A stretch of 63,019 nt of DNA, counting the filler, from Stramenopiles sp. TOSAG23-2 (taxonomy: Eukaryota), in the NCBI GenBank assembly GCA_900128395.1. It is 8 parts of 8 records of this genome, joined end to end, with 100 filler letters (N's around TTAATTAATTAA, not from the genome) between each part and the next. Parts side by side here need not be neighbours in the genome. Positions count along the whole stretch, not along the records: positions 1 to 8,744 come from LT650170.1; positions 8,845 to 17,548 come from LT650172.1; positions 17,649 to 26,346 come from LT650173.1; positions 26,447 to 35,137 come from LT650174.1; positions 35,238 to 43,914 come from LT650175.1; 3 more parts are not named here. The stretch is one strand, 5' to 3'. Positions 831 to 43,515 of the stretch are shown here, piece by piece; the stretch's first letter is position 1; each line of letters starts with the position of its first letter. The position numbers and the translations under genes are program-made. The notes below the pieces were generated by a model, which searched no databases, was not told the DNA's origin, and saw only the letters and a list, made by a program, of their open reading frames with translations.

Positions 831-3452
831 ATGTATGATTCATTTATTGATACTATCTACAATGTGAAAATAATCGAAATAAATATCGCCTATGTTTTGG
901 TAACTATATTAATTGGATATATAACATATTTTGAATTCAGAGCTGTTTTAAAAAAAATATTTATACTGACTTTTTTTCCAGTTTGGCGTATTGTGGGTTA
1001 TAGGGAATATATGTCCAAGGAATATCGTCGAATCCAATGTGAATTAAAAGATCGTGTTGAAAAGAATGAAACTGTTTATCTTATTGGAATTACTTTAGGT
1101 ACACATAATGCAGGCGTTTCATTAGTCTCTGTATCGAAAAAAAAAGGCATTCATCTTATTTGTAACAATGAGGAAGAAAGGTTTAGTGGTATGAAACATG
1201 ATTGGAGATTTCCTATTCACTCTTTATCTAAATTAAAAGAAATCATTCAACAAATAAATAGCAAGCAAAACGATAAGATGGAAATTTTATGTTGCTTAGT
1301 ATCGTGGGATTTCATGGCATTTAGTGCTACTTGGTTTGATTACCTTATCAGTCATTTTCCATCCAATATTAAATTGTGGTTGCCATCAAAATCCTTGAAA
1401 AGTTTTATTGATTTGAATGCTATTATAAATGGACCGAAATTAATGTTTCGAGATCCATTTTTTTCCAATAATATTATTCATAAAAATCAATTCTTTGGCA
1501 GTAGGCATCATGATAACCATGCATATATGTCATATGGTATTTCACCATTTTACAATGCAAAAGGTTCCACGATGGTATTAGTCGTAGATGGTATGGGTGA
1601 TGATGCTTCCATTTCATTTTATGTATCGTCTGCTAGCAATAAGAAAAAATTGAAATTTATAGGCTGTAACAATTCCATCTTTAATTCTATTGGAATTTTA
1701 TATCAAGTCTTATCAAGTTCACAAGGTGGATGGACACCGCTCTCTAGCGAAGGTCGGTATATGGGCGCATCGGCATGGGGAAATTTAAATCGTCAAACAA
1801 ATTCATTTTATTTACAATTGCGTCAGATAGTTGAATTTGGTAGCAATGGTGATATTAAATTAAATACTAACATGGTTAATTGGCAAAACGACCCAATAAG
1901 TCGCCCATATAAGCAAAAATTAATAGATATTATTGGGATGCCAATTTTACCTAGCGAGTGTTGGAACCCTGATAATGTATTGAATGTCGATAATGTTCAA
2001 CATGCTCCGGCAACTATTGAACGTTGTGATAAAGCAGCTGCATTGCAAATGGTATTTGAGGATTGTATTTTTCACCTTGTTACTTATTTAATTTCCAAGA
2101 CGAAACAAATGTTTAATGGTCGTGCTAGTAACAATTTAATATGGACAGGTGGGTGTGCTTTAAACTGTGCTGCATCAATGCATTTGCTAGATCAATTTAA
2201 TAATACATTTTATGAAAGAGTTGATATCTTACACAACAATGCAAAGGAAACCGATAGCAATAAAATATATAATAAGAAAAGTCGTACATTGCATTTATGG
2301 GTACCGCCATTTCCATCTGATCCCGGTGTCGCTGCTGGTTCTGTGTATACTATGGCAATGCAAGCAAATATTGATCATTTATCTATCAATCCATTACGAC
2401 ATGCATTTTACTGCGGCACTGCATTTAATTCTATTGAAATCCAACAAACCATTTATAATTTCAATGATATTGGTTGTATTAAAATCTCAGATAGCAATAA
2501 TAATAATGTAATAACAAATGTAGCTAACTTTTTAGCATATGCTGTAGGTGTAAAAAATATGGTATTAGGTATTTTTCAAGGGATAGCGGAAACAGGGTAA
2601 GTAACTGCTGGATCAACAAAAGGATCTGAAAGTACAAGTAAAATTCTATTCCCGTAAACTTAAAAAAGGTATCCTCTCTAACAGATTATCATCACTCATT
2701 CATACACTACGCTCCACAAAAAGGCCCCGTGCCCTGGGTCATCGCACAATTGTTGCTAATCCAACCAATCCCAATACTTTGGAATTGTTAAATTCATTGG
2801 TTAAATACAGGGAGAAGGTACGTCCATTAGCGCCAATGATGACATTAAATGCAGCGAAGGAATATTTTCATTTAAAAGATGGTGCATCAGATGATGATTA
2901 TGTTGCATATAATTTTATGATATTAGCAGCAAAAGCAAAAAATGGGGTGAAAAAAATAGTACCAGCTATTGTCCATGCTGATAATAGCTCAAGATTACAA
3001 ATCGTTCGGAAGGAAACAGATTTATTTGTACATTCATATTTAAAATCTATGGGGGAATATGTTGGAGTCGAAATATCTGTAAATACCAGGTAAGCAAATT
3101 CTATTTCCCTAAACCTAATAAAAACGACATCGTCTCTAACACATCACTCATTCATACGCTGCGCTATACAAGTTTAAATGTCGGTACACCTATAGTACAA
3201 ACACCAAAGCAAGCATTACATGCGCTACGAAAATCAAAAGGTATGCATGGTGTAATTTTTATATCAGATAATAATGATATATATATTGCTTGGGACAAAA
3301 ATATGAAAAAAAAAATGAAATTACAAGAACAAATGAATCAAAATGAAAATTTACAAAAATTTAACAAGATTATTCAATTAAGTATGGTTGATGTATTGAA
3401 AGAATTTGAGCAAAAAACGAAGATAACATTTAAAAAAAAAGAAATATTTTAA
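831..3452 (+). CDS. Carbamoyltransferase, NodU/CmcH/TobZ family; 3 exons (831-2596, 2724-3089, 3173-3452)
   Basis: Motifs HNAG, EEERFSGMKH, HHDNHA, VVDGMGD, GGCALN, PSDPG and HADNSSRLQ. Splicing restores ETG|PRALGHR and NTS|LN in frame. There is an N-terminal hydrophobic segment. Confidence 0.92.
2597..2723 (+). mobile_element. Spliceosomal intron, introner-like family copy 1 (127 nt, with extra 5' sequence)
   Basis: GTAAGT...AAAAG, phase 2. Its 3' ~90 nt align with 3090-3172 and with the reverse complement of 42693-42775. Confidence 0.8.
3090..3172 (+). mobile_element. Spliceosomal intron, introner-like family copy 2 (83 nt)
   Basis: GTAAGC...ACAAG, phase 2, TCTAAC branch point. Shares aaattctatt-ccctaaacc...tctaacacatc...cactcatt-atac-ct-cgct with the other copies. 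Confidence 0.85.
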
Positions 3453-3925
3453 GGGGTTGTGTGAATTCCAAGAATTACAAAAGTATGAGTATAATATATA
3501 AACATACTGTACCTGTGTGCTGTTCTCTGGACACCAGAGGCATTTCCTGGTCCAAATATACGTTTTCCTACCTGATCTGTAGAGCTATTAATAAAAGTAA
3601 AAGGGAGGTAGACAGATAGTATCACTACAATCACAGCGTTGCACAGCATTGCAAGAACCAGTCGCAAGAACACTTCTAAATTCAAAAAAACATCATCATC
3701 GCACCATCATCAAAAATATCTTTCTTCTTATTCTACTTATTGGACTTAGGAATTAGATATAGAAGACACTATGTACATTTTAACAAAGGATAGACGACAT
3801 TTACTATTAGAACTATATGATATATAATTAGACAACAATTTTATTGTTTAAAAAAATAGTAATCAAACACGAAGTAAAAGTACAACAATCATATATAATA
3901 TACGTAATATACAAATTATAATATA

Positions 3926-5194
3926 ATGGCATCAATAACTGAACGTGAATCATTTTTATCAGACAACTGTCCACCAATGGGAATTTATGAAACTTTATAT
4001 GCATTCAGAGATAGTTTTGGAAAATTCATGCTTTCTGAGGGCACGCATCCATGGTCTCAAGGTTTCCCATTAACTACTCCTCTTGACAAATTTGATGGTC
4101 CACCACTTCCTGCCTCCGTTAACGTTACATGGGAAGATCGATTTTATCCAAAAGCATGGGGTCATCCAAAATTAAGACAAGCTATTGCAAATCATTATAA
4201 TAATAATTATGGTAGTAATATTGTGCCTGAGAATGTTATGGTATTTGCTGGTGGTCGACCTGGTATTTTAGCTGTTCTCGCTTTCTTGAAGAAGAAAGAC
4301 GTTCAAGTTCGTATTGGCAACGTTGAATGGCCGGCATATCTTGATATTATGACAGCGATGGAGACCAATTTTCGCGTAGTTCCATTTACAAAAGAAAATA
4401 ATTTTCATCCACCAAATAAAGATTACTTTGACAGGACTGGGCTTAATGCAAAGACTCGAATCATGCCTATTGTGTCAAACCCAAGCAATCCAACAGGGCA
4501 TACACGAAGCGGGGATGAATTGAAAGAATTGATTGAAATGGCAGAGAAGAACAAAAATGGAATTTTGCTGGATGAAGCTTATGAATTCTTTCATTCCCCT
4601 GCTGTATCTGGAATCAAATACGTTAAAGATTTGGATAATAGCAATGTTTTCATTACCGGCGCTTGTACAAAAGGGTTGCAATGTCCAGGAATTCGTGTTG
4701 GCTGGATGGTTGCATCGAAAAAAAATATTGAAACTTTGGCTAATTTTAGTAGCTTTGGCATGGGTGGTGTATCCCACCCTTCTCAATTATACGCTGTAGA
4801 ACTTTTAGAGTCTACGCGTGTGAAGAAGGCAATGAGTGCTGTGGAAAAACATTATGATTGGCAACGTGAGCGATATGGGGAAGCATTTAAAAAAATGGGA
4901 CTGGGCGTCTATACAGGCAAAGGTGGATTTTATCATTGGTTGGAACTTCCAGAAGGGTTAAATAGCAAAGAATTCAATAAACGATTGTTTAAACGCGGGG
5001 CTGCCATTTTATGTGCTTCTGAATGCGACATGGCACGTCCGCACGATAAAGAATTACTTAAAGATTATCAAACACCTTACGATCGTTTTTTCCGTTTTTC
5101 ATTTGGCCCATTATTGCCAGAAACGTTTGAATCTGATGTTACCATTATGAGAGAGGTATTGGAACAATATAAAAGTGATGCTGGTGTGCAATAA
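3926..5194 (+). CDS. PLP-dependent aminotransferase class I/II (aspartate aminotransferase-like)
   Basis: YPKAWGHPKLRQAIA, SNPSNPTG, LLDEAYE, TK(PLP Lys)GLQCPGIRVGW, FRFSF. Confidence 0.92.
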   Translation: MASITERESFLSDNCPPMGIYETLYAFRDSFGKFMLSEGTHPWSQGFPLTTPLDKFDGPPLPASVNVTWEDRFYPKAWGHPKLRQAIANHYNNNYGSNIVPENVMVFAGGRPGILAVLAFLKKKDVQVRIGNVEWPAYLDIMTAMETNFRVVPFTKENNFHPPNKDYFDRTGLNAKTRIMPIVSNPSNPTGHTRSGDELKELIEMAEKNKNGILLDEAYEFFHSPAVSGIKYVKDLDNSNVFITGACTKGLQCPGIRVGWMVASKKNIETLANFSSFGMGGVSHPSQLYAVELLESTRVKKAMSAVEKHYDWQRERYGEAFKKMGLGVYTGKGGFYHWLELPEGLNSKEFNKRLFKRGAAILCASECDMARPHDKELLKDYQTPYDRFFRFSFGPLLPETFESDVTIMREVLEQYKSDAGVQ

Positions 5195-6219: not shown

Positions 6220-7107
6220 CAATACAGTCGTGTTGGAGGACAATTTTCCACGGCATATGCTAAAACACCGTTGGAATGGATAGAGTATCGTGCTAAACAA
6301 TTGCCTGGGCCACAAGATTATTATCCAAGGGAAAGTTTAAAGGAAAATTCATTTCGCTTCAGTGAAGCAAAACCCAAAAGCGATGTGGAATGGAAAATAT
6401 ATAGAGCAGCATCTATTCCAGGACCAGCTGATTACAATTTACAAAATTCAGGCTATGCATCAGGTGCAAGTGCAAAATTATTAGGTAGATTTGAGCGTGG
6501 AAATTATCAAACAACATTACCAGATGCAATACAGTACTCGCATACTACAATTAATTCAAAAGGTCCAACTCAATGCCGCGAAAAAGGTTCATTAGGTTTT
6601 CAACCCGATTCGATGAAGAAAACTGCCCCATCATTCCATTTCGGCGCTAAAACTAGGCAAGATCGATATGATTATGGTTTGATGTGTGATGATGAGAAAG
6701 ATTGGCGCCTATTGCAACGAAAAATGCTAGCCAAAAAAAAGAGAAAAAAGATGAAAAAGCGTTTAGAAGAAATGGGAGAGAATAAACGAATGTTTGGTTT
6801 TGATCCATTAGATTTAAATTTTTCTCAAAGTGTTTTAAATCATAAATTAAATAGACTGGAAAATGAAACGAAAGCATGGCACAATAATGGACATTCACAT
6901 AAACGACAACAAAAGTCATCAGAAAGCAGTCGTAATGATAAACGTTCAAGAAAGAAATTACGAAGAAAAAAATTTAAAAAGCAAAGAAGTAGTATGGAAA
7001 ATCTATCAAAACCGAAATATTGCAAAAGTTTGCCATCACTTAGTTACCATGCTGCAATGATGAGAGTAATAGAACAAAATCGTCAAAGACAAGAATTGCA
7101 TTATTAG
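6220..7107 (+). CDS. SHIPPO/PG-rich repeat (ciliary/flagellar) protein, probably a 3' exon
   Basis: Repeated FSxAxxKxxxEWxxYRAxxxPGPxDY units. The frame is open upstream of 6271 back to a possible AG acceptor near 6218-6227, with no in-frame ATG. Confidence 0.7.
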   Translation, partial: QYSRVGGQFSTAYAKTPLEWIEYRAKQLPGPQDYYPRESLKENSFRFSEAKPKSDVEWKIYRAASIPGPADYNLQNSGYASGASAKLLGRFERGNYQTTLPDAIQYSHTTINSKGPTQCREKGSLGFQPDSMKKTAPSFHFGAKTRQDRYDYGLMCDDEKDWRLLQRKMLAKKKRKKMKKRLEEMGENKRMFGFDPLDLNFSQSVLNHKLNRLENETKAWHNNGHSHKRQQKSSESSRNDKRSRKKLRRKKFKKQRSSMENLSKPKYCKSLPSLSYHAAMMRVIEQNRQRQELHY

Positions 7108-8658: not shown

Positions 8659-8744
8659 ATTGTTGCTTTTATTATTATCATATTTTATATTATTGTTGTA
8701 ATACAAATATTATATATATATATTTATACTATTACTTTACTCTC

Positions 8745-9324: not shown

Positions 9325-10140
9325 ATGAAAAAAGCAGTACTAGTGGGTATTAATTATTCTAATGATAATTCGGCGCGTTTGAATGGGTGTATTCAGGATA
9401 CACAGAATGTGAGGGATATTTTGATTAGTAAATTTGGGTACAAGCCTAGTGATATAACGATGATTAATGATTTTACGGAAACCAAGCCGACCAAGGATAA
9501 TATTATCAGGGCGTGTTTTGAGATGATTCAGGGTCAGGCTAATAATGACGTTGACCAGTTTTTCTTTCAATATTCTGGTCATGGTGCTCAGGTTCCGGAT
9601 CGTGATAGAGACGAATCTGATAACAAGGACGAGGTTATTGTCCCGATTGATTACAAGACTGCGGGTTTGATAAGTGATGATCTTTTGTTTAATTTGCTAG
9701 TGAAGCCATTAAAGTCGCATCAAAAGTTGACGTGTTTGATTGATGCGTGTAATAGTGGTACGATGTTGGATCTAAAGTATAATATAAAGGCAATGACAAA
9801 ACCGATATCTGGCAAGATATCAAAGCCTTATGATCACAGTGAATGGAATGCTCGTTTGGGTATTGATATTGGTACTCGTGATTCACCAAAGGGTAATGTG
9901 TTGATGATTTCTGGCTGTCAGGATCATGAGCAATCTAATGACGTTAGTATAGGAAAGACGTATCAGGGTATGATGACGTATTGTTTTTTGGATTGTTTAC
10001 GGTCGAATGATTGCAAGATAAAATTAAAGTATCTTGTAAAGGATATAAATTGTCTTTTAGATTTGTATGGATTCAAGAATCAAAACAGTCAATTGTCGGC
10101 TAATAACTATCCTAATTTGGAGGAAATCTTTGAGCCTTGA
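9325..10140 (+). CDS. Metacaspase (peptidase C14), no prodomain
   Basis: KKAVLVGINY, LNGCIQD, YSGHG (catalytic His), DACNSG (catalytic Cys), ISGCQDHEQS. Confidence 0.95.
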   Translation: MKKAVLVGINYSNDNSARLNGCIQDTQNVRDILISKFGYKPSDITMINDFTETKPTKDNIIRACFEMIQGQANNDVDQFFFQYSGHGAQVPDRDRDESDNKDEVIVPIDYKTAGLISDDLLFNLLVKPLKSHQKLTCLIDACNSGTMLDLKYNIKAMTKPISGKISKPYDHSEWNARLGIDIGTRDSPKGNVLMISGCQDHEQSNDVSIGKTYQGMMTYCFLDCLRSNDCKIKLKYLVKDINCLLDLYGFKNQNSQLSANNYPNLEEIFEP

Positions 10141-10260: not shown

Positions 10261-13200
10261 ATGAGTTATAATTTCAAGGATAATTTAGCTATTGACAATG
10301 ATCGCTATTTAAAGTGGTTTAATACGTCTAATGTGAAGCAGAATATTATAGGTTTGGATACGTCAAATGATTTGACTATAAATAATGGTGGTGGTTCGGT
10401 ATCTTTGAATCCTACGGGTTCAAGTCATACTTTTATAAATAGTGGTAATACTGGTGTGACGTTGATTGATAATAAACTTGGTGTGGGTTATAATACGACT
10501 GATAATACTAATTCGACATTGACTATGGCAAGTAGTTCATTTTTGTCTGTGAATACAGTATTTGGTAGTAATGATGGGTATCTTGGTATTACAGGTTCCA
10601 ACGAGTTGTCTCATTCTGCGGGTTCAAGTGTGATATCTTATGGTCAGAATCACGGGTCATTACCTGGTCATTTAGAGTATTATACTGGTACGAGTGGTGA
10701 GCATTCATTTTACACTGGTGCTGATACAAAGCGTGCTCAAATTTTGTCTGATGGTACTACTAATTTCATGCCTAATGGGAGTACGATTAGGTTATCTATA
10801 GAGGATACCATTTCAACGTTTGGGAACCAAGTTCATATTACGGATACTACGGAAGCAGTTAATGGTAGTACTGGTGCGTTGGTAATTAATGGTGGTTTGG
10901 GTGTGTTGGGAAATACTGTTATTGAGGGTACTCTAAGTATTAATAGTGTTATCGGAAATTTGGAGTTTAATAGTACTCGTCCTTCACTCAGTTACAGTTC
11001 AGGTAGTATGACTGTGGAGGGTGGTTTTGGAATACAGAGTACGGTGGATGCAGCGAGTGTGACTAGTGGTGGTGGGTTATCTGTGGCTGGTGGTTTTGCG
11101 TTGGGAAAGAAGGCTATTATTGGTGGTGAAGTAACAATAGAGTCTAGTACGGTGTCTACTAATTCTCAGACGGGTTCTTTGGTTGTATATGGGGGTGTGG
11201 GGTTAAACAAGACTGTGTATCATAAATCGGTGGCTCCTCATGTTAATTTTAGTCCATTGGTGACTGGTAACGAGTCTAGTATGCATTTTTATTCAAACAA
11301 TGATTTTACAGAGACATCTGGGACTGGTGGTGGATGGCACGTTGGTAATGGTGCGGTGAGTGTGGGGAGTGGTAATTTTAGTATAGGTCATATAACTAAT
11401 CCGAGACTTACGTTTCATGCTGATGGAAAAACAGTACTGTCTACGAATACTGGTTCACAAGTGTCTGGAGCATTAGAGGGGTTGACATTGACTACTGACA
11501 ATAGTACGGTATTTGCTGCGAATACTGATATTACGAATGTTAATCGACAATTTAATGTGTATAATGATAGTACAACGAATGATACATTTACTGCGCATTC
11601 GTTTCAGTCAGCGGCGGGTGGTACAGCAGATATAAAACACGTGGGGAATTCTACGAGTACAAGTCGTAAATTGGTGACTACACTAGACAATGTGGACATT
11701 GTTTCATTAGATTACTCTGGGATGACTGTCTTATCTACGACTTTGGTGGGAACAACAGTGAATTCTGTGTCTACCGTTGGTGGTGCATTGAATGTGGCAG
11801 GTGACCTAGTTCTAGGTGCATCCAAAACTATCCATATAGCACAGGGAGGCGTAGCGGCACCTACATTTACAAATAGGAGTGTAGGAACTAAAATAGTGTT
11901 GTATCCTGATATAGGTGCTGCCAGTGTAGATTTTGCAATAGGTATTGACGGTGGAACTCTGTGGCAAAGTGTACCTCTTTCAGCACATTTTTTCAACTGG
12001 TACGCAGGAACGACGAGTGTGATGACGTTGTCAGGTACTGGGAATATAACGTTATCTGGTACAGTGGACGGTCGTGACGTGGCTGCTGACGGTTTGACGA
12101 TAGACAATTTAAATACAACTATTGGTTTATCAGCTTTGAGTTCAGTGGAAGTGGATCAACTTGAAAATATAGACTCTGTGACTATATCAAATACTCAATG
12201 GGGTTACCTAGGGTCTTTAGATCAATCTTTATCTGTTGGAAGTAATCCTACGTTTGGGAATGTGATAGTAACTGGTACTGTGGACGGTCGTGATATATCG
12301 ATTGACGGTGGTTTATTAGATACTCTTTATACAACTATTGGTTTGAGTGCGTTAACAAGTGGTGAAGTAGATCAATTAGAAAACATTGATTCAGTGACGA
12401 TATCAAATTCCCAATGGGGATATCTGGGAGCGTTGGATCAAGCGCTATCTACAACAAACGGTGTGACATTTAACAGTGTGATCATTGATGGTACAAGTAC
12501 GGAAGCTTTACTAGTAAGAAAGGACGGAGACGTAGTCGACGGTGACGTATTTACAGTGGATACGACGAATACAAGAGTAAATATAGGTTCAGGAACTGCG
12601 AATCACACAACAAAGTTAAGTTTGTATGGTACTGCTAGTAGTGTTAATGGTCCTCATTGGGCTGCAACAACTACTGTGGACGTTTATCCAGTGTTTCAAA
12701 ATTTGAATCAAAATCATGACAATATATCATTGAATTTTGATATGTATTATGACGGTGTGAGTAATAAGAGTAGTGATCCCGGGAGTAATTTCAGGATATG
12801 GAAATTTGCTGACGCTTTAGGATTCTATTATGATAGTGGTGTGGCTGCAGGTAGTACAATGGTTACAAACAAGGTAGGTATGTCTATGAGTAATACTGGT
12901 GTGGTATCGTTTGAGCAAGGTATAATAGTGGACAAGTCTGGAACAGAGGCGTTACTCGTAAGAAAGGACACGGACGGTGGGGACGTTTTTGTGGTAGATA
13001 CAACAAATGAGATTGTGTGTGTGGTAGCAACGGCTGAATCAACAAGTGTAACAACGGGTGCATTCAAGGTATCAGGTGGTGTGGGTATATCAGGCTCGTT
13101 ATATGTGGGTGGTACATTGCATAGTGATGCATTATTCGAGTTGGCGAGTATTACGTTAGATAGTACGACTCCGAGTAGTAATTTAAGTACGGGTTCTTTG

Positions 13201-13902
13201 GTGACTCTGGGTGGTATTACTATAAACAAGACGAGTGACTCTGTGAGTTTGACCGAGGGTGGTTCATTAACGAGTGCTGGTGGTGCGAGTATAGCCAAGA
13301 GTGTATTTATTGGTGGTAATTTGGATGTATCAGGTACGAGTAACGAGTTGGGTGCGATGCAAATGTTGAATAATGACACTGGTGTTAGTTATATAACGGC
13401 GGCGGCATCTAGAACTAGTGGTCAGTATCAGTCAATATACATTACTGGTTACGACAAGACTCCGATTGTTGCCGAGTTTAATGCGACGGCTACGAGTTCT
13501 AGTTTGAGTACTGGTACACTAGTGGTACATAATGGTGGTGTTGGGATTAATTTTACGGACGATGCAGTTAGTATAACGAGTGGTGGTAGTATAACGAGTG
13601 GCGGTGGTGCGAGTATTGGTAAGCAATTGTTTGTTGGTGGGAATACCCAGATTGGTGATAATACTGTGACGCCTCAGCAATCATTGACTATAGGTACTGA
13701 AGGTTTTGGCACAAACAAGGATCATGGTATTAGAGTGTCTGTGAATGATGCTACGACTACGAGTCACACTAATTACAGGTACATTGATATGCGCTTGATA
13801 TCTAATGGTGCAAGTTCTTATAGGGGTGCACTTTTGGGTACGTTGGGTGGTGGAGTGGCAACGGAACATGAGTTTATTACGATGAATCAAACGGGTACCT
13901 AA
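10261..13902 (+). CDS. Large Gly/Ser/Thr-rich virion fibre/adhesin-like repeat protein, probably 3'-truncated
   Basis: Repeated GALVxxGGxG motifs, a duplicated ~70-aa GTVDGRD...QWGYLG unit and duplicated EALLVRKD units. The stop lies inside the 55-bp inverted junction. Confidence 0.8.
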   Translation: MSYNFKDNLAIDNDRYLKWFNTSNVKQNIIGLDTSNDLTINNGGGSVSLNPTGSSHTFINSGNTGVTLIDNKLGVGYNTTDNTNSTLTMASSSFLSVNTVFGSNDGYLGITGSNELSHSAGSSVISYGQNHGSLPGHLEYYTGTSGEHSFYTGADTKRAQILSDGTTNFMPNGSTIRLSIEDTISTFGNQVHITDTTEAVNGSTGALVINGGLGVLGNTVIEGTLSINSVIGNLEFNSTRPSLSYSSGSMTVEGGFGIQSTVDAASVTSGGGLSVAGGFALGKKAIIGGEVTIESSTVSTNSQTGSLVVYGGVGLNKTVYHKSVAPHVNFSPLVTGNESSMHFYSNNDFTETSGTGGGWHVGNGAVSVGSGNFSIGHITNPRLTFHADGKTVLSTNTGSQVSGALEGLTLTTDNSTVFAANTDITNVNRQFNVYNDSTTNDTFTAHSFQSAAGGTADIKHVGNSTSTSRKLVTTLDNVDIVSLDYSGMTVLSTTLVGTTVNSVSTVGGALNVAGDLVLGASKTIHIAQGGVAAPTFTNRSVGTKIVLYPDIGAASVDFAIGIDGGTLWQSVPLSAHFFNWYAGTTSVMTLSGTGNITLSGTVDGRDVAADGLTIDNLNTTIGLSALSSVEVDQLENIDSVTISNTQWGYLGSLDQSLSVGSNPTFGNVIVTGTVDGRDISIDGGLLDTLYTTIGLSALTSGEVDQLENIDSVTISNSQWGYLGALDQALSTTNGVTFNSVIIDGTSTEALLVRKDGDVVDGDVFTVDTTNTRVNIGSGTANHTTKLSLYGTASSVNGPHWAATTTVDVYPVFQNLNQNHDNISLNFDMYYDGVSNKSSDPGSNFRIWKFADALGFYYDSGVAAGSTMVTNKVGMSMSNTGVVSFEQGIIVDKSGTEALLVRKDTDGGDVFVVDTTNEIVCVVATAESTSVTTGAFKVSGGVGISGSLYVGGTLHSDALFELASITLDSTTPSSNLSTGSLVTLGGITINKTSDSVSLTEGGSLTSAGGASIAKSVFIGGNLDVSGTSNELGAMQMLNNDTGVSYITAAASRTSGQYQSIYITGYDKTPIVAEFNATATSSSLSTGTLVVHNGGVGINFTDDAVSITSGGSITSGGGASIGKQLFVGGNTQIGDNTVTPQQSLTIGTEGFGTNKDHGIRVSVNDATTTSHTNYRYIDMRLISNGASSYRGALLGTLGGGVATEHEFITMNQTGT

Positions 13903-13916
13903 AACACCAAATAAAG

Positions 13917-14738
13917 CTACACCTGTTTTTCCTTGATCATCAATACCACACGAAACACACCCAAATCACCAATATTCCATTCCAAAATCAATGGTTTATC
14001 ATTCTCAATGTAAATCTTCATATATGGTGACATACTCGTCGCCTTGATAAAGTAATTCAAATAATGTAACGAAAAATCACCCTTTATAATAGCATCCGAA
14101 GACTGAGTATATGTAATACGCTTCACATTATCATCAACTATCTCATTCTCTGATGGAGCTATCTGACGAAGAGTAATCTCACTCGACAACTTTGTTTTAT
14201 CACCATGATTCGTAAATACCAATTGTTGAGAATAAGACGTAATCTCAATACGATCCGAACCAAACCCAGACATCTCTTTGATAATCTCCTGAAACGTCTT
14301 GCTAGGTAAACTAATACAATGATCAGACTGAATATCACTCAACTTGAAAGGCTTGTCATCCAAAAATAACACCGGAAGATTATACTTTTTAATCTTGCCC
14401 TGAGAACTATTCTCCAATGATACACAAAGATGCGTAGGAGAATCTTGCTCCAAAGACAACGTAATACTGTCCTTTACATTCACATTCTTGATCAATTTAT
14501 AAAACTCACTTACCTCAATACCTATAATATACTTGCTCTTGCAGAAAAAAGACTCGAAATTCTCAGCACCCAAAAACGTATACGTAATCCACATGTCTGA
14601 CGAATCCTGCTTCGTAATCCTAATACCCTCGGGAGTAAACACAAAATTCAAATCCTTGATATACCCCTTGACAGTCTCGAAAAGATACTTGAAAAAAATA
14701 CTCTTTATCGTTCTCGCCTCAAACACATTAGAAGACAT
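13917..14738 (-). CDS. PCNA: Proliferating cell nuclear antigen (sliding clamp), NCLDV type
   Basis: FEARTIKSIFFKYLFE...DLNFVFTPEGIRI, FESFFC, LPSKTFQEIIKEM, FSLHYLNYFIKAT, ENDKPLILEWNIGDLG. Confidence 0.93.
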   Translation of the reverse strand: MSSNVFEARTIKSIFFKYLFETVKGYIKDLNFVFTPEGIRITKQDSSDMWITYTFLGAENFESFFCKSKYIIGIEVSEFYKLIKNVNVKDSITLSLEQDSPTHLCVSLENSSQGKIKKYNLPVLFLDDKPFKLSDIQSDHCISLPSKTFQEIIKEMSGFGSDRIEITSYSQQLVFTNHGDKTKLSSEITLRQIAPSENEIVDDNVKRITYTQSSDAIIKGDFSLHYLNYFIKATSMSPYMKIYIENDKPLILEWNIGDLGVFRVVLMIKEKQV

Positions 14739-14784: not shown

Positions 14785-15477
14785 TTAAAAATTACCACCA
14801 AGCAACACTTGGGTCGTACTACGGTAATTCTTTTGACCCTTGATAGAATCATTCACTTGATGATCAATAAGAACCGGTTGAGTACTCGCATCCCTAAGAT
14901 AATCAATATACTGCTGCAATTGACTCGCAATCCTAGGAACAGTCTCGTTAATCACTAGTTCATTCAGTCTACGAGTCTCACTCACAGTATCATCCAGAAT
15001 ACGGTCCTTGTCTTCCCTCGATTTAGCTAGCTCCAATGAATTCGTATGTCTACCATACTGCAAATACATCGCACGCATCACAATCAATAATTCCTGACGC
15101 GATTGCTTATCAATCACTTGACCCATTTGCTTAAACACCGTAAAACGAATCAAATCCTGAAGATCATTCACATTACGCTCAGAAAAATACAAATAACTCA
15201 AAGGATTCTCAATATGAATATTACGCATCACCGCATTCGTATTTGATGCATTACCACTTTGCTTCACTTGAGTATCAGTCAATTGCCACATCCCAGGTGA
15301 CTTTAAATCCGAAACATCCACATTCGGAACACGAAACGTACGATCACTCTGTACACGACGAAGATCACTCTTGTTACCCGGAGTCGTATTTATATTCTCA
15401 AACAATTGAGGATGAAACGCAATATTAGGTATCCCATTTGTAGTATCTATTTGTTTATTAACATTGTAATGAGACAT
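14785..15477 (-). CDS. NCLDV conserved protein resembling the minor capsid P8 central region/DUF5761 family
   Basis: LSYLYFSERNVNDLQDLIRFTV...IDKQSRQELLIVMRAMYLQY...LNELVI...YIDYLRDAS; recognised by eye. Confidence 0.75.
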   Translation of the reverse strand: MSHYNVNKQIDTTNGIPNIAFHPQLFENINTTPGNKSDLRRVQSDRTFRVPNVDVSDLKSPGMWQLTDTQVKQSGNASNTNAVMRNIHIENPLSYLYFSERNVNDLQDLIRFTVFKQMGQVIDKQSRQELLIVMRAMYLQYGRHTNSLELAKSREDKDRILDDTVSETRRLNELVINETVPRIASQLQQYIDYLRDASTQPVLIDHQVNDSIKGQKNYRSTTQVLLGGNF

Positions 15478-15512: not shown

Positions 15513-16292
15513 TCAAAAATCACCCAACTTTATTGCCCTTAATTCTTGTATACTCATACGCTTCTTCTCACCTGACAACGTACCATGTAGTATACTTTTT
15601 ACATTATCCGATAAATCATCATCAATTAGTAAACTATCCAACCCATCATATATATATTGATTCCACTGTTTATCCTCTGGTTGATCCCAAAGACACTTGT
15701 CTGTAAACAAAGTATAAAACATCAGACCCAAACACCACATATCAACCTTTTTAGGCACAACAAAAAAACCATCATATTGTTCTGGTGACCAACACCCCAA
15801 AGTACCAAACAATGTATTCGTTAAAGAATCAGCATTCCGAGCTGAACCAAAATCTATTAACCTTAACTCATTATTCTTGTTGACCAACACATTCTCAAGC
15901 TTGATATCACAATGCGCAATACCATTTTCGTGCAAATACTCGATTACCACCAGTAATTGCTCCCAAATACCTAATTTATTCACCATTACACCATTTGATA
16001 TTATATCAAACAAATCTTGCGATTCAAAATACTCCATACACATCACATTATTACTAAAATCAACATCAAACACAGACAATATACTCGAATGATCAAGCAC
16101 CTTGCCCATAGTATATTCCAAAGTCAATTCCTCACGCGATTTAACCTTTTTAACAACGTAATTCTTTTCAAAATTAGTTACCACACATACCTTGTTATGC
16201 TCATTCCCCTCAAATTTCTTTACACACTTGTATTTCGAGTCGTTAATCGTAGGATCAGATATCATTTTATACGTAAACTTCATCCCAATCAT
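15513..16292 (-). CDS. Ser/Thr protein kinase (viral)
   Basis: VVKK, HCDIKLEN, IDFG, GTLGCWSPE, DMWCLG. Confidence 0.93.
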   Translation of the reverse strand: MIGMKFTYKMISDPTINDSKYKCVKKFEGNEHNKVCVVTNFEKNYVVKKVKSREELTLEYTMGKVLDHSSILSVFDVDFSNNVMCMEYFESQDLFDIISNGVMVNKLGIWEQLLVVIEYLHENGIAHCDIKLENVLVNKNNELRLIDFGSARNADSLTNTLFGTLGCWSPEQYDGFFVVPKKVDMWCLGLMFYTLFTDKCLWDQPEDKQWNQYIYDGLDSLLIDDDLSDNVKSILHGTLSGEKKRMSIQELRAIKLGDF

Positions 16293-19229: not shown

Positions 19230-19859
19230 TTATAAAAAGGAACCGGCTGGTTTTTGTTTGTTTGCATGCAAATATATTTCTGTGGTGTTTTTGCTGGCGT
19301 GTCCAAGGAATTGTGATACTTCACTGATACCAGCACCATTTGCAAAGGCATCGGATGCGACGGTATGCCTAAACATATGAGGGGTTATTTTGGATCGTCC
19401 TCCGTTGAGTTCATCGGTCATTCGTCCTTTGCAAATTTTTTGTATCCAATTTTGTCCTGTTCGTGTGGATATTGGGCATCGTGGATCTTGTCCTGGAAAG
19501 ACATAGTCTTGTTTTCTTTCACATCGAGCAAGGTGTTCCAAATAATACCTTCCACGTGTACCGATGACAACGGTCCGTGTTTTGTTGCCCTTGCCCAATG
19601 TAGTAACGGTCAACTCAGTGGTTTCCTTTGGGGGTTGGTTCTTTCGTCGTCGAAAGGCTTGACGCTTTGGGATGCTACCGGCGAATTCATTGTGCTTGGT
19701 TTCCAACACAATATCTTTGTACCGAATCTTACATACCTCGAAGAGACGGAGACCGCCAAAGTACAACAAGGCAACGAACTTCTGTTTTTTTCCAGAGGTT
19801 TCCGCCAAGATAGATTCCATCTGGTCGTCCGGGATGACGTGCACATGTGTGGTGCGCAC
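19230..19859 (-). CDS. Tyrosine recombinase/integrase, XerC/D-like catalytic domain (ATG start possibly at 19820)
   Basis: Full catalytic set: LLYFGGLR(R), GKGNK(K), PHMFRH(H-x-x-R), LGH(H), TTEIY(Y). Visibly more GC-rich than neighbouring host genes. Confidence 0.93.
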   Translation of the reverse strand: MRTTHVHVIPDDQMESILAETSGKKQKFVALLYFGGLRLFEVCKIRYKDIVLETKHNEFAGSIPKRQAFRRRKNQPPKETTELTVTTLGKGNKTRTVVIGTRGRYYLEHLARCERKQDYVFPGQDPRCPISTRTGQNWIQKICKGRMTDELNGGRSKITPHMFRHTVASDAFANGAGISEVSQFLGHASKNTTEIYLHANKQKPAGSFL

Positions 19860-23532: not shown

Positions 23533-23843
23533 AATAATTACGTATCAGAGAAGAGAAAGAAGAAGAAGAAGAGAGATTATTATACACTGTGAATTTTAAA
23601 TATAAAAAAAAATGTACGCGTATTCCAGTATTCGCGTACCGAGTATTTTAATTTTTATTCCTACTCATGACAATTCCTACTCTCAAAAGAATACAGTGAC
23701 TGAGCCAAATATTAATATCTCTATCTCTCACAAGATGTGTCGATAATTTCCGTAACAGAAATTACCGAGATGAGGTAAAATAGATGTTATCAACCCTACC
23801 GTTGATATATTTTTCGGCCATATTTTTACAAGAGAACACACAC

Positions 23844-37532: not shown

Positions 37533-40500
37533 TTACATAACTACACAACTCTTGCCACCACCATTATTACTCCCTTGATTTGTAAATTCTTCCTCTTTTC
37601 TTGGCGGTACATTCATTGTTTGCAATTTTTTGTCCACACTTGAACCCCTCCTTCGTCTTTGTCTAAAAGATACAGAACCTTGATGAATTGAATGAGCTTG
37701 TATAGAAGTTCTACTGTTGTTACGCCCTAATCTAGATATTGTCAAATGTCCTCCAAGAAATAATGAAGTCCGTTTTGCACGACTAGGCGGTCGTACACCA
37801 TTCATAACAGAACCTAGCATTTTCCTCATAATTTTTCTATGTAAAAGGCGAGTTACGAATCGTGGTTTTTTAATTTTGTGGGAAAATTTTCTTGCACTAT
37901 GAAGTGCTCGTCCATAAAATCTCAGCCATAATTTGATGTCTTGTGGCGAAGTATGTACATCTAAAACATCTACACGACTTTCATTTTTTAAATAGTTTTC
38001 ATTTTTGAAATATTCTTGAATTTCAAAAATTACTTGAAAAACACATCTAGAGGTAGCTTCCTCCTTAGCATCTAAACGATCTTTCATTGTGTTACCAAGA
38101 AACGTGAAAAACCACCCTGAAAAAGAATGGTCGATTATAAAAATCAATAAATCCTGAGTAAATTGAAATTTATTTGGGAATTGTTCCATCAATTGGTAGA
38201 CGCAATCCATGAATTGAACAAATATAGGACCAGTTTCACCCCCATTGCTGTGCTGGCGAGTAAAGAACTTGTGGCCAAAATCACACCATTGATTTTGTAT
38301 TAAATATAAAAATCCTTGTATAGTCCTGTAAAATGGATCAACCATTAGCATTGTTAAAGCAGTTGCTTGTGGTGTTCTATCCCATCCATCACTACAATGA
38401 ACCAAAATAGATATACCTTTATCAAGTTTTTTTACACCATGTACGGCAGCAACCAAAAGCATAGTCACATGGGTTAACCATTTAGACTCTTTAATACCAG
38501 CTTCCCAATTTCCTTGGTAACCAAACAACATCAATTTTTGCAATGATCTTCGCATGACATGTATATTTTCAACATTTAACAAACTCATTGAAAAACTTAG
38601 AGAGTAATCCCTGATCTTTTCTGTGCCTTTACCGCCAACCTTATTCGCTACTACATTCAATAGTGGTCGCATATCCATAATATTCAACGTTTCTGAATTA
38701 TCGTTTTCAGCCATAAGCAAAGATTGGTGACTCATTGCAGTTTTTAACAACTTTTTGTTTTTATCTACCTCATCATTTATATTATTATTAGAATTTGTCT
38801 GATTGTCATTGTCTTTCTTCCCCTGGATTCTAGGGCAATCGTTCCTTTTATTACTACTGCTGATTTCCTTTTTCTCTTTATCATCATTTTCTGGCTCTTT
38901 TTTTTTACCATTATCAACTCCTCCGTTCTCACTAATTTCATTCTCTGGTGTAGAAAAAGTATTCACAACTTCTAAAACTCTTTCTCTATCACGTTTTTTA
39001 CGAACTGAAGATCTACGGTTGGCTTCAGAATGACTACATTCACTGATTGCAAGAAGCATTTTCTTGTCTATAGTAGAAGACTTTGATGTTAAACCACTCA
39101 ATGGTTGTGCACAACGGCATACTACAGCACCAGTATATGGATGTCGCCATACAATCGCAGGAATACGCCCTCTACTCCTATATTTACTCAATTGTTTTAC
39201 ATCCTCGTCTGTCATCGATGTTGGTACGTATATTGACGAAGGGTATGATTTACACAAGTGAAAATCTAGCTGTTCATATATCCTCCATCCATGCTGTTGA
39301 AAACCTAATCTTGTAGCATCATCTTCATAAGTGAATGCAAGATGTCTTTCTTCATCCACTCCTTCCTCCTCTTTGTTTATATCCCTTTCTTTCCCATCAC
39401 CTTCTTCCGCGACATCATTATTACTATTACTACCACTATTATCATCCTCACCATCATTAGGTATATCTTTGCCTTCCTCTACTTCCTTCAATTGTTCCTT
39501 TTCACCACTGCTATCATCTTCCCTACCATCCGCATTTATTTTGCTATCGTCTATTTTTGAAGTGCTCTTTTCACCTTCATTAGCATCTGCACTTACTTTT
39601 TCCAAGTTGTTATGGAACATTGACTTTGCTAATTGTTTTTTTGATAAGAGAGGATTTGAGACTGAAACCTTCATGCTATCACTTATATTATTTTCTTCGA
39701 CTTCAGTAATTAATTTCCCCTTGAATAAACGAGATTGTTGTTCTTTAATAAGCCATTCCATCTTTAACACTAAATTTTCCAACAGAATTTCAGGGCTGTA
39801 CGTTAACTGCTCTAGTGACACCTCTTCTATGGTTCGTGCATGCACAAATGGGTTACCACAACACCCTGGGCCTCGAATGTCCCCCTTTAATGTTTTTGCA
39901 CCAAGATGAAAATAATACATACCAGGCAATTTACATTTAATTTCTAATAAAGTACCAGCTGGACACACTGGACCTAATTCAACACCATCTACTAGTGACA
40001 TATCCATGATCCAACCTAATGGAATTTCCAAATGTTCTACTTGCTTGTAACCAGTCGTTGCTTTTGGTAATGGCAGAGAATTGCTTTTTTTATAGTTTTC
40101 TTGGCGACTTCCTTTTCTAAATGCAGCTCTATGTGGGATAAATATTAAACGATACGAACTTAAAACTAAAGCACCTGAAACCAATATATCACGCTCGTTA
40201 TCATGTCCTTGTTTACCTCCTACAAGGCATACATCATCGTATACTTCTTCAACAACTTCAACTAATGGCGAAGGCCAGAAAGGCAAAATTCGACTATGAA
40301 ATGGCATATGCGCTTTCTTCCCACTTTCAAATATTTTTAGATGTTTTGCATTATTTTCTTCTTCCTCTCCATTTGTTTCTATGTTACTATTCTTTTGCTC
40401 ATCATTTTTTTGAATATCGAAAATATGCTTTGTATATAGTTGATCTGTTTTTTCTACTGGTACATACTCATACATGTATGGTGGGGTATGTACTAAAAGC

Positions 40501-41564
40501 CGAGCTTTTTTTTTACCACTATTGCCCTTGGTATTGTGCATGGGTAATGTACACTTATATGTCAATTTTAATCGAACTTTTCCAACACCAGGAGGTTTTG
40601 TTATGACATACCAATTATCGACCGTTTTGTTTTGTCTTAACCCCCCTAACGGTACACGAAAACTTCCAATGGTTGAATCAACAGTAGCTAATACAGAATT
40701 AGTATTTTTCTTTTTCACTTTTATAATCAAGAAGCGTACTCCTATGTCCGAAGCGGCTTTTTGAACGTTAATTGTATGAACACTTCTCCAAGATGTGGAA
40801 ACTTTAGTTTTAGATTTATTGATAACTTTTCTATAACTTTGTCCCTCTGCAATTTTTATATTATCTTCACCATATACAGATTGACCGGAGACACCATCGT
40901 AAATAACTTCACAATAATATATAATACGAGGATGATTGAAACTACTATTTGCAAGCTCGCCAGTTGCAAGACGTTTCGAAAATGATCGACTGAAGCCACT
41001 GGATGTTTTGGTTCTATTATGACTAGACTTGTTTGATCTGTCTTCGTGTAATGATTGTGTTCTTCCTGTATTTTTATTTTTGTCTATATTGCCTTTTTCC
41101 ACCATACGTGAATGCCGGTGAAATGAAGACTCCCCTTCTTCCTCTTCAGTTTCAGAATCTTCCGCACTGTCCAAAACGGATTGAAGTTCATCTGTATCTA
41201 TAAAACCATCTATTACTTCTATTTTTACATGGTGCTTGCCTTTCCTATTTTTTTTCAACTTTGTAGAATCGCCGCCTTTTGCTTTTACCGCGGAGACCAT
41301 AAATGAGGATTCCTGTATTAATGCATCATCGTCACTATCATCCGTTTTTTTCTGCTTTCTTAATACTGCTGGTAATGACTCCACTTTTTTCATACTTGTC
41401 TCTCCAGATTTTGCTTTACTAGGAGATCTCATTTCCAACATGCTACCAAAGTAATAACTATTTTTTGAAGCCATTCTCGTCAACTTTTTTTTATTTTTCG
41501 GTGCTTCCTGTACATTATTATTACCACTTGTCTCCTTCTCTTGCTCCACAACTGTTGAAGACAT
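37533..41564 (-). CDS. Myotubularin-family phosphoinositide phosphatase with C2-like and PH-GRAM-like regions and a CaaX box
   Basis: LCKSYPS, RSRGRIP, RCAQP, NIHVMR, active-site HCSDGWDRT, DPFYRTIQGF, FGHKF; ends KSCVVM. Confidence 0.93.
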   Translation of the reverse strand: MSSTVVEQEKETSGNNNVQEAPKNKKKLTRMASKNSYYFGSMLEMRSPSKAKSGETSMKKVESLPAVLRKQKKTDDSDDDALIQESSFMVSAVKAKGGDSTKLKKNRKGKHHVKIEVIDGFIDTDELQSVLDSAEDSETEEEEGESSFHRHSRMVEKGNIDKNKNTGRTQSLHEDRSNKSSHNRTKTSSGFSRSFSKRLATGELANSSFNHPRIIYYCEVIYDGVSGQSVYGEDNIKIAEGQSYRKVINKSKTKVSTSWRSVHTINVQKAASDIGVRFLIIKVKKKNTNSVLATVDSTIGSFRVPLGGLRQNKTVDNWYVITKPPGVGKVRLKLTYKCTLPMHNTKGNSGKKKARLLVHTPPYMYEYVPVEKTDQLYTKHIFDIQKNDEQKNSNIETNGEEEENNAKHLKIFESGKKAHMPFHSRILPFWPSPLVEVVEEVYDDVCLVGGKQGHDNERDILVSGALVLSSYRLIFIPHRAAFRKGSRQENYKKSNSLPLPKATTGYKQVEHLEIPLGWIMDMSLVDGVELGPVCPAGTLLEIKCKLPGMYYFHLGAKTLKGDIRGPGCCGNPFVHARTIEEVSLEQLTYSPEILLENLVLKMEWLIKEQQSRLFKGKLITEVEENNISDSMKVSVSNPLLSKKQLAKSMFHNNLEKVSADANEGEKSTSKIDDSKINADGREDDSSGEKEQLKEVEEGKDIPNDGEDDNSGSNSNNDVAEEGDGKERDINKEEEGVDEERHLAFTYEDDATRLGFQQHGWRIYEQLDFHLCKSYPSSIYVPTSMTDEDVKQLSKYRSRGRIPAIVWRHPYTGAVVCRCAQPLSGLTSKSSTIDKKMLLAISECSHSEANRRSSVRKKRDRERVLEVVNTFSTPENEISENGGVDNGKKKEPENDDKEKKEISSSNKRNDCPRIQGKKDNDNQTNSNNNINDEVDKNKKLLKTAMSHQSLLMAENDNSETLNIMDMRPLLNVVANKVGGKGTEKIRDYSLSFSMSLLNVENIHVMRRSLQKLMLFGYQGNWEAGIKESKWLTHVTMLLVAAVHGVKKLDKGISILVHCSDGWDRTPQATALTMLMVDPFYRTIQGFLYLIQNQWCDFGHKFFTRQHSNGGETGPIFVQFMDCVYQLMEQFPNKFQFTQDLLIFIIDHSFSGWFFTFLGNTMKDRLDAKEEATSRCVFQVIFEIQEYFKNENYLKNESRVDVLDVHTSPQDIKLWLRFYGRALHSARKFSHKIKKPRFVTRLLHRKIMRKMLGSVMNGVRPPSRAKRTSLFLGGHLTISRLGRNNSRTSIQAHSIHQGSVSFRQRRRRGSSVDKKLQTMNVPPRKEEEFTNQGSNNGGGKSCVVM

Positions 41565-41917
41565 ATTATTTATTTATTTCTGAAATATTGTGTTCTTCTA
41601 AGGGAGATGGTGTAAATATTATTATTTATTTTTATGATGATGTGTTATTTGTTGATGTATATAACACCAGACAAACAAAGTAAGAAAAAAAAAAAGGGAT
41701 GATTGCGTGATCTAGGAATCGACTCAACACACACACACACGCACGCTCTCTCTTATACGCCACCAAGATTGTATATTCTTTTATTGTTATATATATATAT
41801 ATCTTTTCTTTTCTACATGTATAATTCACAATACGATGTGCAGCAATGGCAATGGTGCCAATATTAAAAAAATAGAAGATAATAATAACAAAATAAACTC
41901 CTTCTTCTTCATGCCAT

Positions 41918-42276
41918 ATTCCTGGCAATGGCTCTGGCAGGCCCAGCAGGCCCAGCAGGCCCTGGGCAGGCTCACATCATTGTAAAATAAATTATCGCTG
42001 ATTTTATCGACATTGAAACATTATTAGAATTATTGAAAAATCAAGAACCAGAGAGAAGGTTTGGTCTACTATGNNNNNNNNNNNNNNNNNNNGCATTCCA
42101 ACATTAACATTCCTGGCAATCTGGCAATGTGGCTCCGGCAGGCCCAGCAGGCCCTCAGGGCAGGCCCAGCAGGCTCACATCATTGTAAAATAAATTATCG
42201 CTGATTTTATCGACATTGAAACATTATTAGAATTATTGAAAAATCAAGAACCAGAGAGAAGGTGTGGTCTACTATG
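41918..42276. repeat. Duplicated ~160-bp segment on both sides of a 19-N gap, with a GGCCCAGCA minisatellite
   Basis: 41918-42073 ~ 42109-42276; differences are mostly in the GC-rich repeat. Confidence 0.85.
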
Positions 42277-42316
42277 GAGTACCATTGGCTAGTTTTACAG
42301 GGAATAAAATTAAAAC

Positions 42317-43515
42317 TCAAAAAAGAATATTACGTGTGACCCCAATAGCTATTCCACCTAAAAACATACATGCAGTCCCAATCATACTCTTTGTTCTTAA
42401 ATGACCCATCCCACTAATACCATGCCCAGAAGTACACCCACATCCGATTCGTGCACCCAATATTATTAAACTACCTCCAACAATTTGTTCTAAACTTGTA
42501 ACATCTTCACTACCGTCATATGGCCATGATTCTGGCCATATAAATAAACCATATGATGCAGTTGCTATTGCTGCTAAAAATACATATAAAAATTCCCACA
42601 AGTCGTTTAATTCTAATTTAATATCATATGATTTTTGTTTCTCAATAGGGACGAAATACATTAACAATTTGGCAGTCGCCGTGTAACCAGGTCTTTGGAG
42701 CGTAGTGTATAAATGAGTGACGATGTGTTAGAAAGGGATATCTTTTTTCGGTTTAGGGGAATAGAATTTACGTACGAAGTTCCTAAATGTTTGCCATGAG
42801 ATAACATTAATGGTATTTGCATACAACCGATAATAGCCCCGCATGCTATTGGATGCCATAGATTTTTTTCTATATGTCTCGGTAAAATTGAATTGCCACT
42901 ACCAGGGGATAGGATATCCACAACAATTGCAATGCCCATTAATAGAATAGACATTATTATGCCAGCTGTTATCCGATTTATATTAAGCCAAGTATGCAAT
43001 GTTAATCGATGTTTTTTTTTTGATGACCATTTTCCAAGCCATGATTGAAATGTTTTTAATGTTGTATTCAAACTTAGAAATATATTTGCACCGATAATTG
43101 CCCCCAAGACCGTGTAAAATCCATTTGGAACGTTACCACTTCCAATTTGTATGAACAATGTCCCTGGACATGCACCACCGATTTCCATACCCATACCAAG
43201 TAAACTTGTTGATACTACTACTGCGGGCAAACCAACTTTATTGGTTTCAAAATATTTTTTTTCCACAACATTCAAATTTTTATTATAACCAAACATATGC
43301 ATAAGAGTAAAAGATAACGTACTAAACGAAGCAGCTGATAAAAACATTTTCAGCATAATATTGCATCTGAATATAAATTGTTCTCGCATAACAGGTACAA
43401 GAAATACACCAGCTTTAAACATTGCCAAACCAAATAAGGACGAACATATTATAATTGTTAATAAAAAGTTCAAAGAGGATGTTTTTTCAATTTTATATTT
43501 CGTTGTCGTTTTCAT
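42317..43515 (-). CDS. YeeE/YedE-family sulfur-compound (thiosulfate) transporter; 2 exons
   Basis: GMGMEIGGACPGT and GARIGCGCTSGHGISG. Removing intron 42693-42775 gives HLGTS|PGYTATAKLLMYF and fuses the two ORFs. Confidence 0.9.
42693..42775 (-). mobile_element. Spliceosomal intron, introner-like family copy 3 (83 nt)
   Basis: gtacgtaaattctattcccctaaaccgaaaaaagatatccctttctaacacatcgtcactcatttatacactacgctccaaag; phase 2; homologous to copies 1 and 2. Confidence 0.87.

Follow-up and report, generated by a model that had tools for sequence, protein, structure and literature searches.

Where new spliceosomal introns come from is an old open question, and the DNA considered here poses it in a concrete form: how do three introns in unrelated genes of an intron-poor genome come to resemble one another well beyond their splice signals? 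The window, by which we mean the whole stretch of 63,019 bases analysed from Stramenopiles sp. TOSAG23-2 (GenBank assembly GCA_900128395.1), consists of eight contigs of ~8.7 kb, chained in descending length by a linker (TTAATTAATTAA flanked by N44 on each side), and all positions are counted along it. A sequence-only reading of this window had proposed that the inserts at 2597-2723, 3090-3172 and 42693-42775 are copies of an introner, a kind of mobile intron established in Micromonas, Aureococcus, fungi, dinoflagellates and many other aquatic protists and, to our knowledge, the one process recognised so far that produces intron gain in bursts. Our data support this interpretation by 32 insertion sites in about 20 Pfam families, by joints in RNA contigs and by the identity of the elements compared to that of their flanks, and none of the three outcomes that the reading had named as refuting was obtained. 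All copies very probably represent one introner, a mobile spliceosomal intron of ~80 nucleotides (nt) in an uncultured, AT-rich and intron-poor marine protist.

The three inserts were located exactly at the proposed coordinates, with the proposed lengths of 127, 83 and 83 nt, and they are indeed distributed over two contigs. Two of them interrupt a carbamoyltransferase gene on the plus strand: intron 1 (2597-2723, 127 nt, phase 2, nhmmer score 61.5 bits) separates exon 1 (831-2596, Pfam Carbam_trans_N, E 2.7e-18) from exon 2 (2724-3089, with Carbam_trans_C positions 21-133 in 2725-3087, E 2.7e-29), and intron 2 (3090-3172, 83 nt, phase 2, 66.8 bits) separates exon 2 from exon 3 (3173-3449, up to the stop codon), the translation of which is colinear with the homologous proteins P0002 and P0004. 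Intron 3 (42693-42775, minus strand, 83 nt, phase 2, 62.2 bits) lies in a YeeE/YedE-type sulphur-transport gene, between exon 1 (42776-43515, minus strand, Pfam Sulf_transp positions 6-197) and exon 2 (42317-42692, minus strand, up to the stop codon, Sulf_transp positions 211-309), which is read in another frame than exon 1. Taking out introns 1 and 2 unites three pieces of a carbamoyltransferase with its N- and C-terminal Pfam domains, and taking out intron 3 likewise unites the two portions of the Sulf_transp profile. Homologs are uninterrupted at these junctions. P0002 (83% identical), P0003 and the bacterial-type P0004 run through both carbamoyltransferase sites with no residue gained or lost; the junction of intron 1 reads ...AETGPRALGHR... 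in P0002 and P0004, and that of intron 2 reads ...VNTSLNVG... in P0002 and ...INTSFNVAG... in P0004. At the third site the homolog P0242 is unbroken, its residue 281 corresponding to the last residue of exon 1 and residue 283 to the first of exon 2, and the cluster of YeeE homologs, called as a single open reading frame (ORF) on JGI, ENA and Logan contigs, has no break there.

The removal of the two carbamoyltransferase introns can be observed in RNA. Contigs from four RNA runs were compared with the first contig of the window, and in two of these runs (X15 and X17, poly(A) or oligo-dT libraries that belong to different studies) there is one contig from which the 127 bases are missing and a second from which the 83 bases are missing, in each case with GT..AG at the predicted borders. 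The X15 contigs extend over 100 and 114 letters on the two sides of intron 1, without mismatch, and over 140 and 126 letters around intron 2, with at most one mismatch, while the short sides of the X17 contigs measure 21 letters at intron 1 and 55 letters at intron 2. Transcripts that lack one or the other segment exist in two of the four runs, and both carbamoyltransferase copies are removed by the spliceosome.

The similarity between the three introns extends past the splice signals, as the sequence-only reading had claimed: they align over ~85 columns with a mean column identity of 80%. A block of 19 nt after the donor and a block of 22 nt before the acceptor each occur exactly three times in the window, solely within these introns. 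Shuffled sequences never matched the 22-nt block (0 of 100 shuffles) and matched the 19-nt block 0.45 times on average, with a single shuffle out of 100 reaching three. A hidden Markov model (HMM) of the family assigns 61.5-66.8 bits to the window copies and 2.8 bits to the next best position of the window, and it gives no match at E<=100 to an ordinary intron at 53673-53775.

Many more than three copies exist. Marine metagenome contigs were searched with a gapped pattern of two short blocks, which returned 30 loci, 29 of them with true members; the remaining one (L020) was rejected as a chance match that has neither GT nor CTAAC nor any other homology. Iterated nhmmer on the window and 164 kb of these loci then yielded 47 copies, which, after copies with the same flanks had been merged, represent 32 non-redundant complete sites and one copy cut by a contig end. 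The contigs with true members are spread over 11 record prefixes. Where a locus overlaps the window, the two are 95-99% identical, and the G+C content is 28-37% among all loci and 28-36.5% among those with true members; they accordingly appear to come from the same or closely related organisms. The same pattern had no match in 596 Gb of prokaryotic genomes, which we take as a specificity control, and three scans of viral contigs returned no family copy. In the window itself the density is three copies per 63 kb.

These sites lie in unrelated genes. A Pfam match was obtained for 26 of 30 flanking exon pieces, in about 20 different families: ABC transporters, a mitochondrial carrier, SLC26/STAS, a Na/sulphate symporter, an MFS sugar transporter, RPE65 oxygenase, P450, FGE-sulfatase, Stealth, ThuA, a methyltransferase, acyltransferase-3, a pectate-lyase-like fold, EML/WD40, LRR, TPR, BNR, DUF6817 and a weak RING match. 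Over the 496 possible pairs of elements the mean identity is 0.771 and the maximum 0.988, compared to a mean of 0.499 and a maximum of 0.602 for the 80-nt flanks of the same pairs, where ~50% is the baseline for unrelated AT-rich DNA. The closest pair, with one mismatch in 81 nt, is shared by a mitochondrial carrier gene (L002) and an ABC transporter gene (L030). Introners are defined by mutual similarity at non-homologous positions that ends at the exons, and such similarity is what was found here (0.77 between elements, 0.50 between flanks). Among the 46 copies listed, the homology begins exactly at GT in 30 and stops exactly at AG in 26, and the inexact edges reflect slight slippage in stretches of CA or A, or the use of a donor that lies a few bases further upstream.

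All 32 complete copies lie on the sense strand of their gene, the frame of which is restored when they are removed. The median open frame past the junction is 210 codons if the element is removed and six if it is kept; removal of one or two extra bases reduces it to 13 or 9 codons, respectively. An in-frame stop results from retention of the element in 24 of the 32 copies. Domain profiles resume behind the element, as in an ABC transporter (ABC_membrane positions 17-105, then 107-244) and in an RPE65 oxygenase (positions 2-104, then 111-302).

Several genes contain two to four copies, namely the carbamoyltransferase, the gene of L003, the RPE65 gene of L022, the ABC transporter of L016 and a TPR gene. 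At L003:350-2335 four copies are found within 2 kb of one gene, which has an LRR region, with a fifth in a neighbouring EML-like gene on the other strand, and an RPE65-type oxygenase gene (L022:2-2141) contains three. Such accumulations may be due to local hopping or to ascertainment.

Several observations weigh against the introner interpretation or restrict its reach. One contig of RNA run X16 passes from exon 2 into intron 2 unspliced, and thus represents unspliced RNA or carried-over DNA; many other X16 contigs match just the element, with foreign flanks, and run X20 has no coverage at this place. For the third copy in the window and for all copies from metagenomes, splicing is predicted from reading frames and homologs, and retention of two copies, of 81 and 84 nt, leaves the frame open. 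The 32 sites come from metagenome contigs, and just those that overlap the window are tied to it by their 95-99% identity. Finally, P0002 and P0003 may derive from either DNA or RNA assemblies.

A typical copy is compact. The median length is 83 nt, 28 of the 32 copies measure 79-88 nt, and longer copies are extended close to the 5' end. The donor hexamer is GTAAGT in 20 copies, and the elements end in CAG (24 copies), AAG (six) or TAG (two). Every copy contains CTAAC or CTAAT, and the branch A lies at a distance of 32 nt from the 3' end in one half of them (16) and of 33-42 nt in the other. Most columns are at least 90% conserved over ~25 nt past the donor and over ~30 nt past the branch site, and the centre between them is A-rich and variable in both sequence and length. 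The sense strand has 8.7% G and 36% G+C. Intron 1 of the carbamoyltransferase gene departs from this organisation: 36 extra intron-internal bases, which open with a working GTAAGT donor, precede the family core (~2633-2723), in which the family start is damaged (GTACAA...), and the working donor has the look of a 5' end that was duplicated or moved. Short 5' additions of a similar kind are present in L008:893-975, L013:1368-1451 and L026:3124-3215.

Two of the traits that the sequence-only reading had noted in the three window copies do not characterise the family. All three are in phase 2, but the phases 0, 1 and 2 are represented by 11, 5 and 16 of the 32 sites, respectively, so that the uniform phase in the window is a coincidence. 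A branch site of the CTAAC type is present in every copy, yet ordinary introns carry CTAAC too; it is the branch-site consensus of the organism and no mark of the family. The claim that the family is less AT-degenerate than ordinary introns is correct: its G+C content is 36%, and that of four ordinary introns from the loci examined is 17-27%.

In the window, ordinary introns are represented by the one at 53673-53775 (plus strand; GTAAGT, TCTAAC and TAG; 18% G+C) and by the 3' part of another at 1-68 (plus strand), which is cut by the contig end and occurs in its full 109-nt form in L018:942-1050. The four non-family introns (53673-53775, L018:942-1050, L005:2754-2914 and L022:2755-2868) share just GTAAGT or GTATGT, CTAAC and YAG. 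A crude intron scan outside the family called the intron at 53673-53775 and one false intron, and the cut intron is known from L018; the earlier statement that the family makes up three of about five introns seen is in agreement with this. Counts from such a scan are rough because false calls occur (e.g. 39224-39331, antisense to a myotubularin gene). An intron of 114 nt at L010:642-755 is of a less clear kind: it is non-family by HMM score and begins in a family-like manner (GTAAGTAAATT), with a block resembling the 3' block of the family placed before its CTAAC, and it may be a diverged or rearranged relative.

Fungal introner-like elements have been reported to fold into stable structures. 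The copies described here differ in this respect, as the alignment of all 32 has no consensus pairs, and folding of ten of them gave energies of -0.2 to -5.9 kcal/mol (z -1.19 to +1.07), which resemble those of shuffled sequences. A short palindrome precedes the branch site in some copies, but with energies equal to shuffles and no consensus pairs a central hairpin or other RNA structure was rejected as a family feature.

The sequence-only reading had seen neither terminal inverted repeats (TIRs) nor a long target-site duplication (TSD). A scan of offsets and of terminal complementarity likewise gave neither. At the borders a 2-nt match between exon end and intron end occurs in at most two of 32 sites; at offsets shifted by up to 6 nt in either direction the maximum is six of 32 sites for two bases, five for three and one for four, none of which is above chance. 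The termini are complementary at five of 20 positions. No preference for a proto-splice site is apparent at the 32 sites either, position -1 being G in 10, T in 10, A in 8 and C in 4, and position +1 being T in 12, A in 9, G in 7 and C in 4; a T at position -3 in 18 of 32 is unconvincing after multiple testing. Among 33 copies none is intergenic or antisense, though open frames of 80-150 codons leave 17-24% of this DNA uncovered. By our own estimate, if 20% of the DNA is non-coding and selection purges antisense copies in exons and no others, intergenic copies should make up about a third of those that survive, and the chance of finding none in 33 would be ~2e-6, provided that intergenic copies are equally detectable.

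How the element multiplies can be discussed on this basis. Each copy is a whole splicing unit, with its GTAAGT donor, its CTAAC most often 32 bases before the 3' end and its terminal CAG; after landing in a gene in sense orientation it would be removed exactly by the spliceosome, and the coding sequence would be restored base for base. We lean, weakly and with considerable reserve, towards an RNA-mediated copying route, in which the spliceosome would insert the excised intron, by reverse splicing, in a transcript or in single-stranded R-loop DNA, where it would then be fixed by reverse transcription and recombination or by repair. Reverse splicing into a transcript or R-loop DNA is a model discussed for Micromonas elements (PMC4540971). 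Such a route predicts an element that is bounded by splice sites, has neither TSD nor TIR, and is present exclusively in genes and on the sense strand. On the other hand, we saw no reverse transcriptase, no 3' position bias and no intermediate in the DNA at hand, and copies are found near gene starts as well as gene ends. The restriction to the sense strand can be explained under any route by selection against unspliceable copies, and a faster decay might hide intergenic copies from a search of this kind; the footprint features also fit an unclassified DNA element combined with selection.

The alternative that survives best, and one to which we give appreciable weight short of an even chance, is a non-autonomous DNA transposon, either resembling a miniature inverted-repeat transposable element (MITE) or of another class, that carries splice signals and is moved without a footprint by a transposase or recombinase encoded elsewhere. 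Movement by such an enzyme is the mechanism shown for introners of the IE1 type in Micromonas pusilla. DNA transposons make up most classifiable introners in published surveys (PMC12130899, PMC9860276), and as ~72% of surveyed families are unclassified, a TSD-less DNA element is plausible. Moreover, ~25 terminal nt on each side are more conserved than the centre, as if the ends were recognised, and the window encodes a tyrosine recombinase (ORF at 19230-19859, minus strand, Pfam Phage_integrase, E 1.2e-24) that adjoins a mitochondrial carrier gene. Against this stand the lack of a TSD at any offset scanned and of a TIR, the position of both splice sites within the conserved element and outside any duplicated target, and the absence of intergenic or antisense copies among 33 despite the non-coding DNA available to them. 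The family HMM gives no score in the vicinity of the recombinase ORF, for which reason a link between this ORF and the family was rejected, and within the 164 kb of loci no larger element was found to share the ends of the family.

Two further explanations are refuted. Unrelated ordinary introns that are alike through strict splice signals and a biased composition could account for GTAAGT or GTATGT, CTAAC and YAG, which non-family introns have as well, but hardly for conserved blocks outside these signals, for 61-67 bits in the family copies compared to at most 2.8 bits elsewhere in the window, ordinary introns included, for the different G+C content or for a 98.8%-identical pair in unrelated genes; block counts against shuffles, the flank baseline and HMM scores all agree on this point, and we regard this explanation as extremely improbable. 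Equally improbable is a spread by gene or segmental duplication, or by gene conversion between paralogs, which could explain why several genes hold two to four copies and is contradicted by flanks at the baseline (at most 0.60 over 496 pairs), by ~20 unrelated host families and by homology edges that in most copies coincide with GT and AG.

We infer that the copies arose by transposition and were gained, not inherited from ancestral introns. The carbamoyltransferase gene is informative in this regard. Beyond two close relatives, its best matches are uninterrupted bacterial proteins with 59-64% identity over exon 2, with named examples from Planctomycetaceae and Nitrobacteraceae, and the 83%-identical P0002 reads through both intron sites. 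The gene is probably of bacterial descent, as judged from these similarities, in which case both of its introns would be gains. The widest reading, in which a footprint-free introner that spreads via the spliceosome, by reverse splicing, is re-colonising the almost intron-free genome of an abundant marine protist and has supplied most of its introns, including the two in this bacterial-derived gene, seems to us unlikely as a whole.

Several known systems resemble this family in part. Fungal introner-like elements, reportedly described by van der Burgt in 2012, are said to be multiplying introns that carry all splice signals and are without known transposon features, which applies to the present copies likewise. 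The introner elements of Micromonas are said to have been described by Worden in 2009. Their ABC-, D- and E2-type members, as described by Simmons et al. 2015 (PMC4540971), are likewise near-identical introns, present in large number at non-homologous sites, placed on the sense strand within transcription units, removed by the spliceosome and traceable in marine metagenomes; their functional motifs are just donor, branch site and CAG. In contrast, the branch motif given there is GacUGAC compared to CTAAC here, and judged by the published motifs the sequences are not similar. Micromonas is a GC-rich green alga, whereas the host considered here is AT-rich and intron-poor, and the present family, with its median of 83 nt, may be the shorter one. 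The 5-nt complement that the lariat model for Micromonas involves was present as ACTTA in four of 32 copies and with one mismatch as ACCTA in 17, with neither in 11, and a 5-mer has little power for such a comparison. IE1 of Micromonas pusilla, which is read as a MITE-like DNA transposon (PMC11282704), resembles the present family in that it is short, non-autonomous, an intron upon insertion and the bearer of its own donor, but it has 3-nt TSDs and TIRs and co-opts its 3' AG from the TSD, whereas both splice sites are internal here and neither TSD nor TIR is found.

A resemblance also exists to introners without transposon hallmarks. Surveys comprise 1,093 introner families in 201 species, ~72% of them unclassified (PMC12130899), and families without TSD or TIR exist (PMC9860276). 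Such families, e.g. the dominant one of Parmales sp. 'scaly parma', are as free of a footprint as this one and occur in aquatic unicellular hosts, and a single family can make up most recognisable introns, compared to three of five in the window (PMC9860276 and PMC12130899). The screen of Gozashti et al. 2022 included 520 eukaryotic genomes from Tara Oceans (PMC9860276), and the present family may already be listed in catalogues of introners compiled from such genomes. Candidate introners of mirusviruses (PMC12768974) are also similar spliceosomal introns from marine metagenomic assemblies; they reside in virus genomes, whereas our family had no match in the three scans of viral contigs.

Elsewhere in the window, Pfam matches revealed eukaryotic genes with long unbroken frames on seven of the eight contigs, among them a myotubularin-like phosphatase of 1,343 amino acids, a RUN-RhoGAP-ELMO-TLDc protein, a mitochondrial carrier, an acyl-CoA dehydrogenase and an SF1 helicase; the myotubularin, RUN-RhoGAP-ELMO-TLDc and mitochondrial carrier genes lie on intron-bearing contigs. 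PGP..Y repeats, spotted by eye in the ORF at 6271-7107, resemble those typical of SHIPPO-type flagellar proteins. The second contig (8845-17548) is giant-virus-like, with genes for a P8 minor capsid protein (14785-15477), PCNA (13917-14738), a metacaspase (9325-10140), a protein kinase (15513-16292) and a 1,213-amino-acid repeat protein with a strong positive GC skew (10261-13902), and may represent an infecting or an integrated virus. None of the window copies of the family lies on it, and a giant-virus origin of the introns was rejected, given the empty viral scans and the eukaryotic genes of the intron-bearing contigs. The tyrosine-recombinase ORF mentioned above could belong to a Crypton-like element or be of viral or bacterial origin. 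No RNA gene was detected in the window by Rfam. An intergenic stretch of 83 nt at 23636-23715 is 92.8% identical, in opposite orientation, to L014:5018-5098 of an otherwise unrelated metagenomic locus; it has no Rfam match and may be another short repeat of the organism or one of its small RNA genes.

As to the identity of the organism, G+C content in the window varies between 27 and 44% in 2-kb steps, and protein look-ups, including one with the myotubularin, found metagenomic proteins as the closest ones, with 99, 68 and 44% identity. For MAST-4A, 33.9% G+C and 0.56 introns per gene have been published (PMC5269757), figures which the present genome resembles in G+C content and poverty of introns.

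For the biology of introners, this family provides a clean case: an element of ~80 nt that carries all three splice signals, leaves no footprint, sits in genes on the sense strand and is spliced in nature. It belongs to the minority of introners without transposon hallmarks, a class that lacks an explained mechanism, and two of its copies in one gene of probably bacterial descent are gains, if that descent is true. Because the organism is widely sampled in ocean metagenomes, presence/absence polymorphism and activity of the element would be measurable without culture. If the spread is indeed borne by the spliceosome, the birth of introns could be followed site by site in natural populations, given how common the organism is in ocean metagenomes and metatranscriptomes. 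The concept of introners is left unchanged by our data, which add one well-documented family to it and, with it, a possible test bed.

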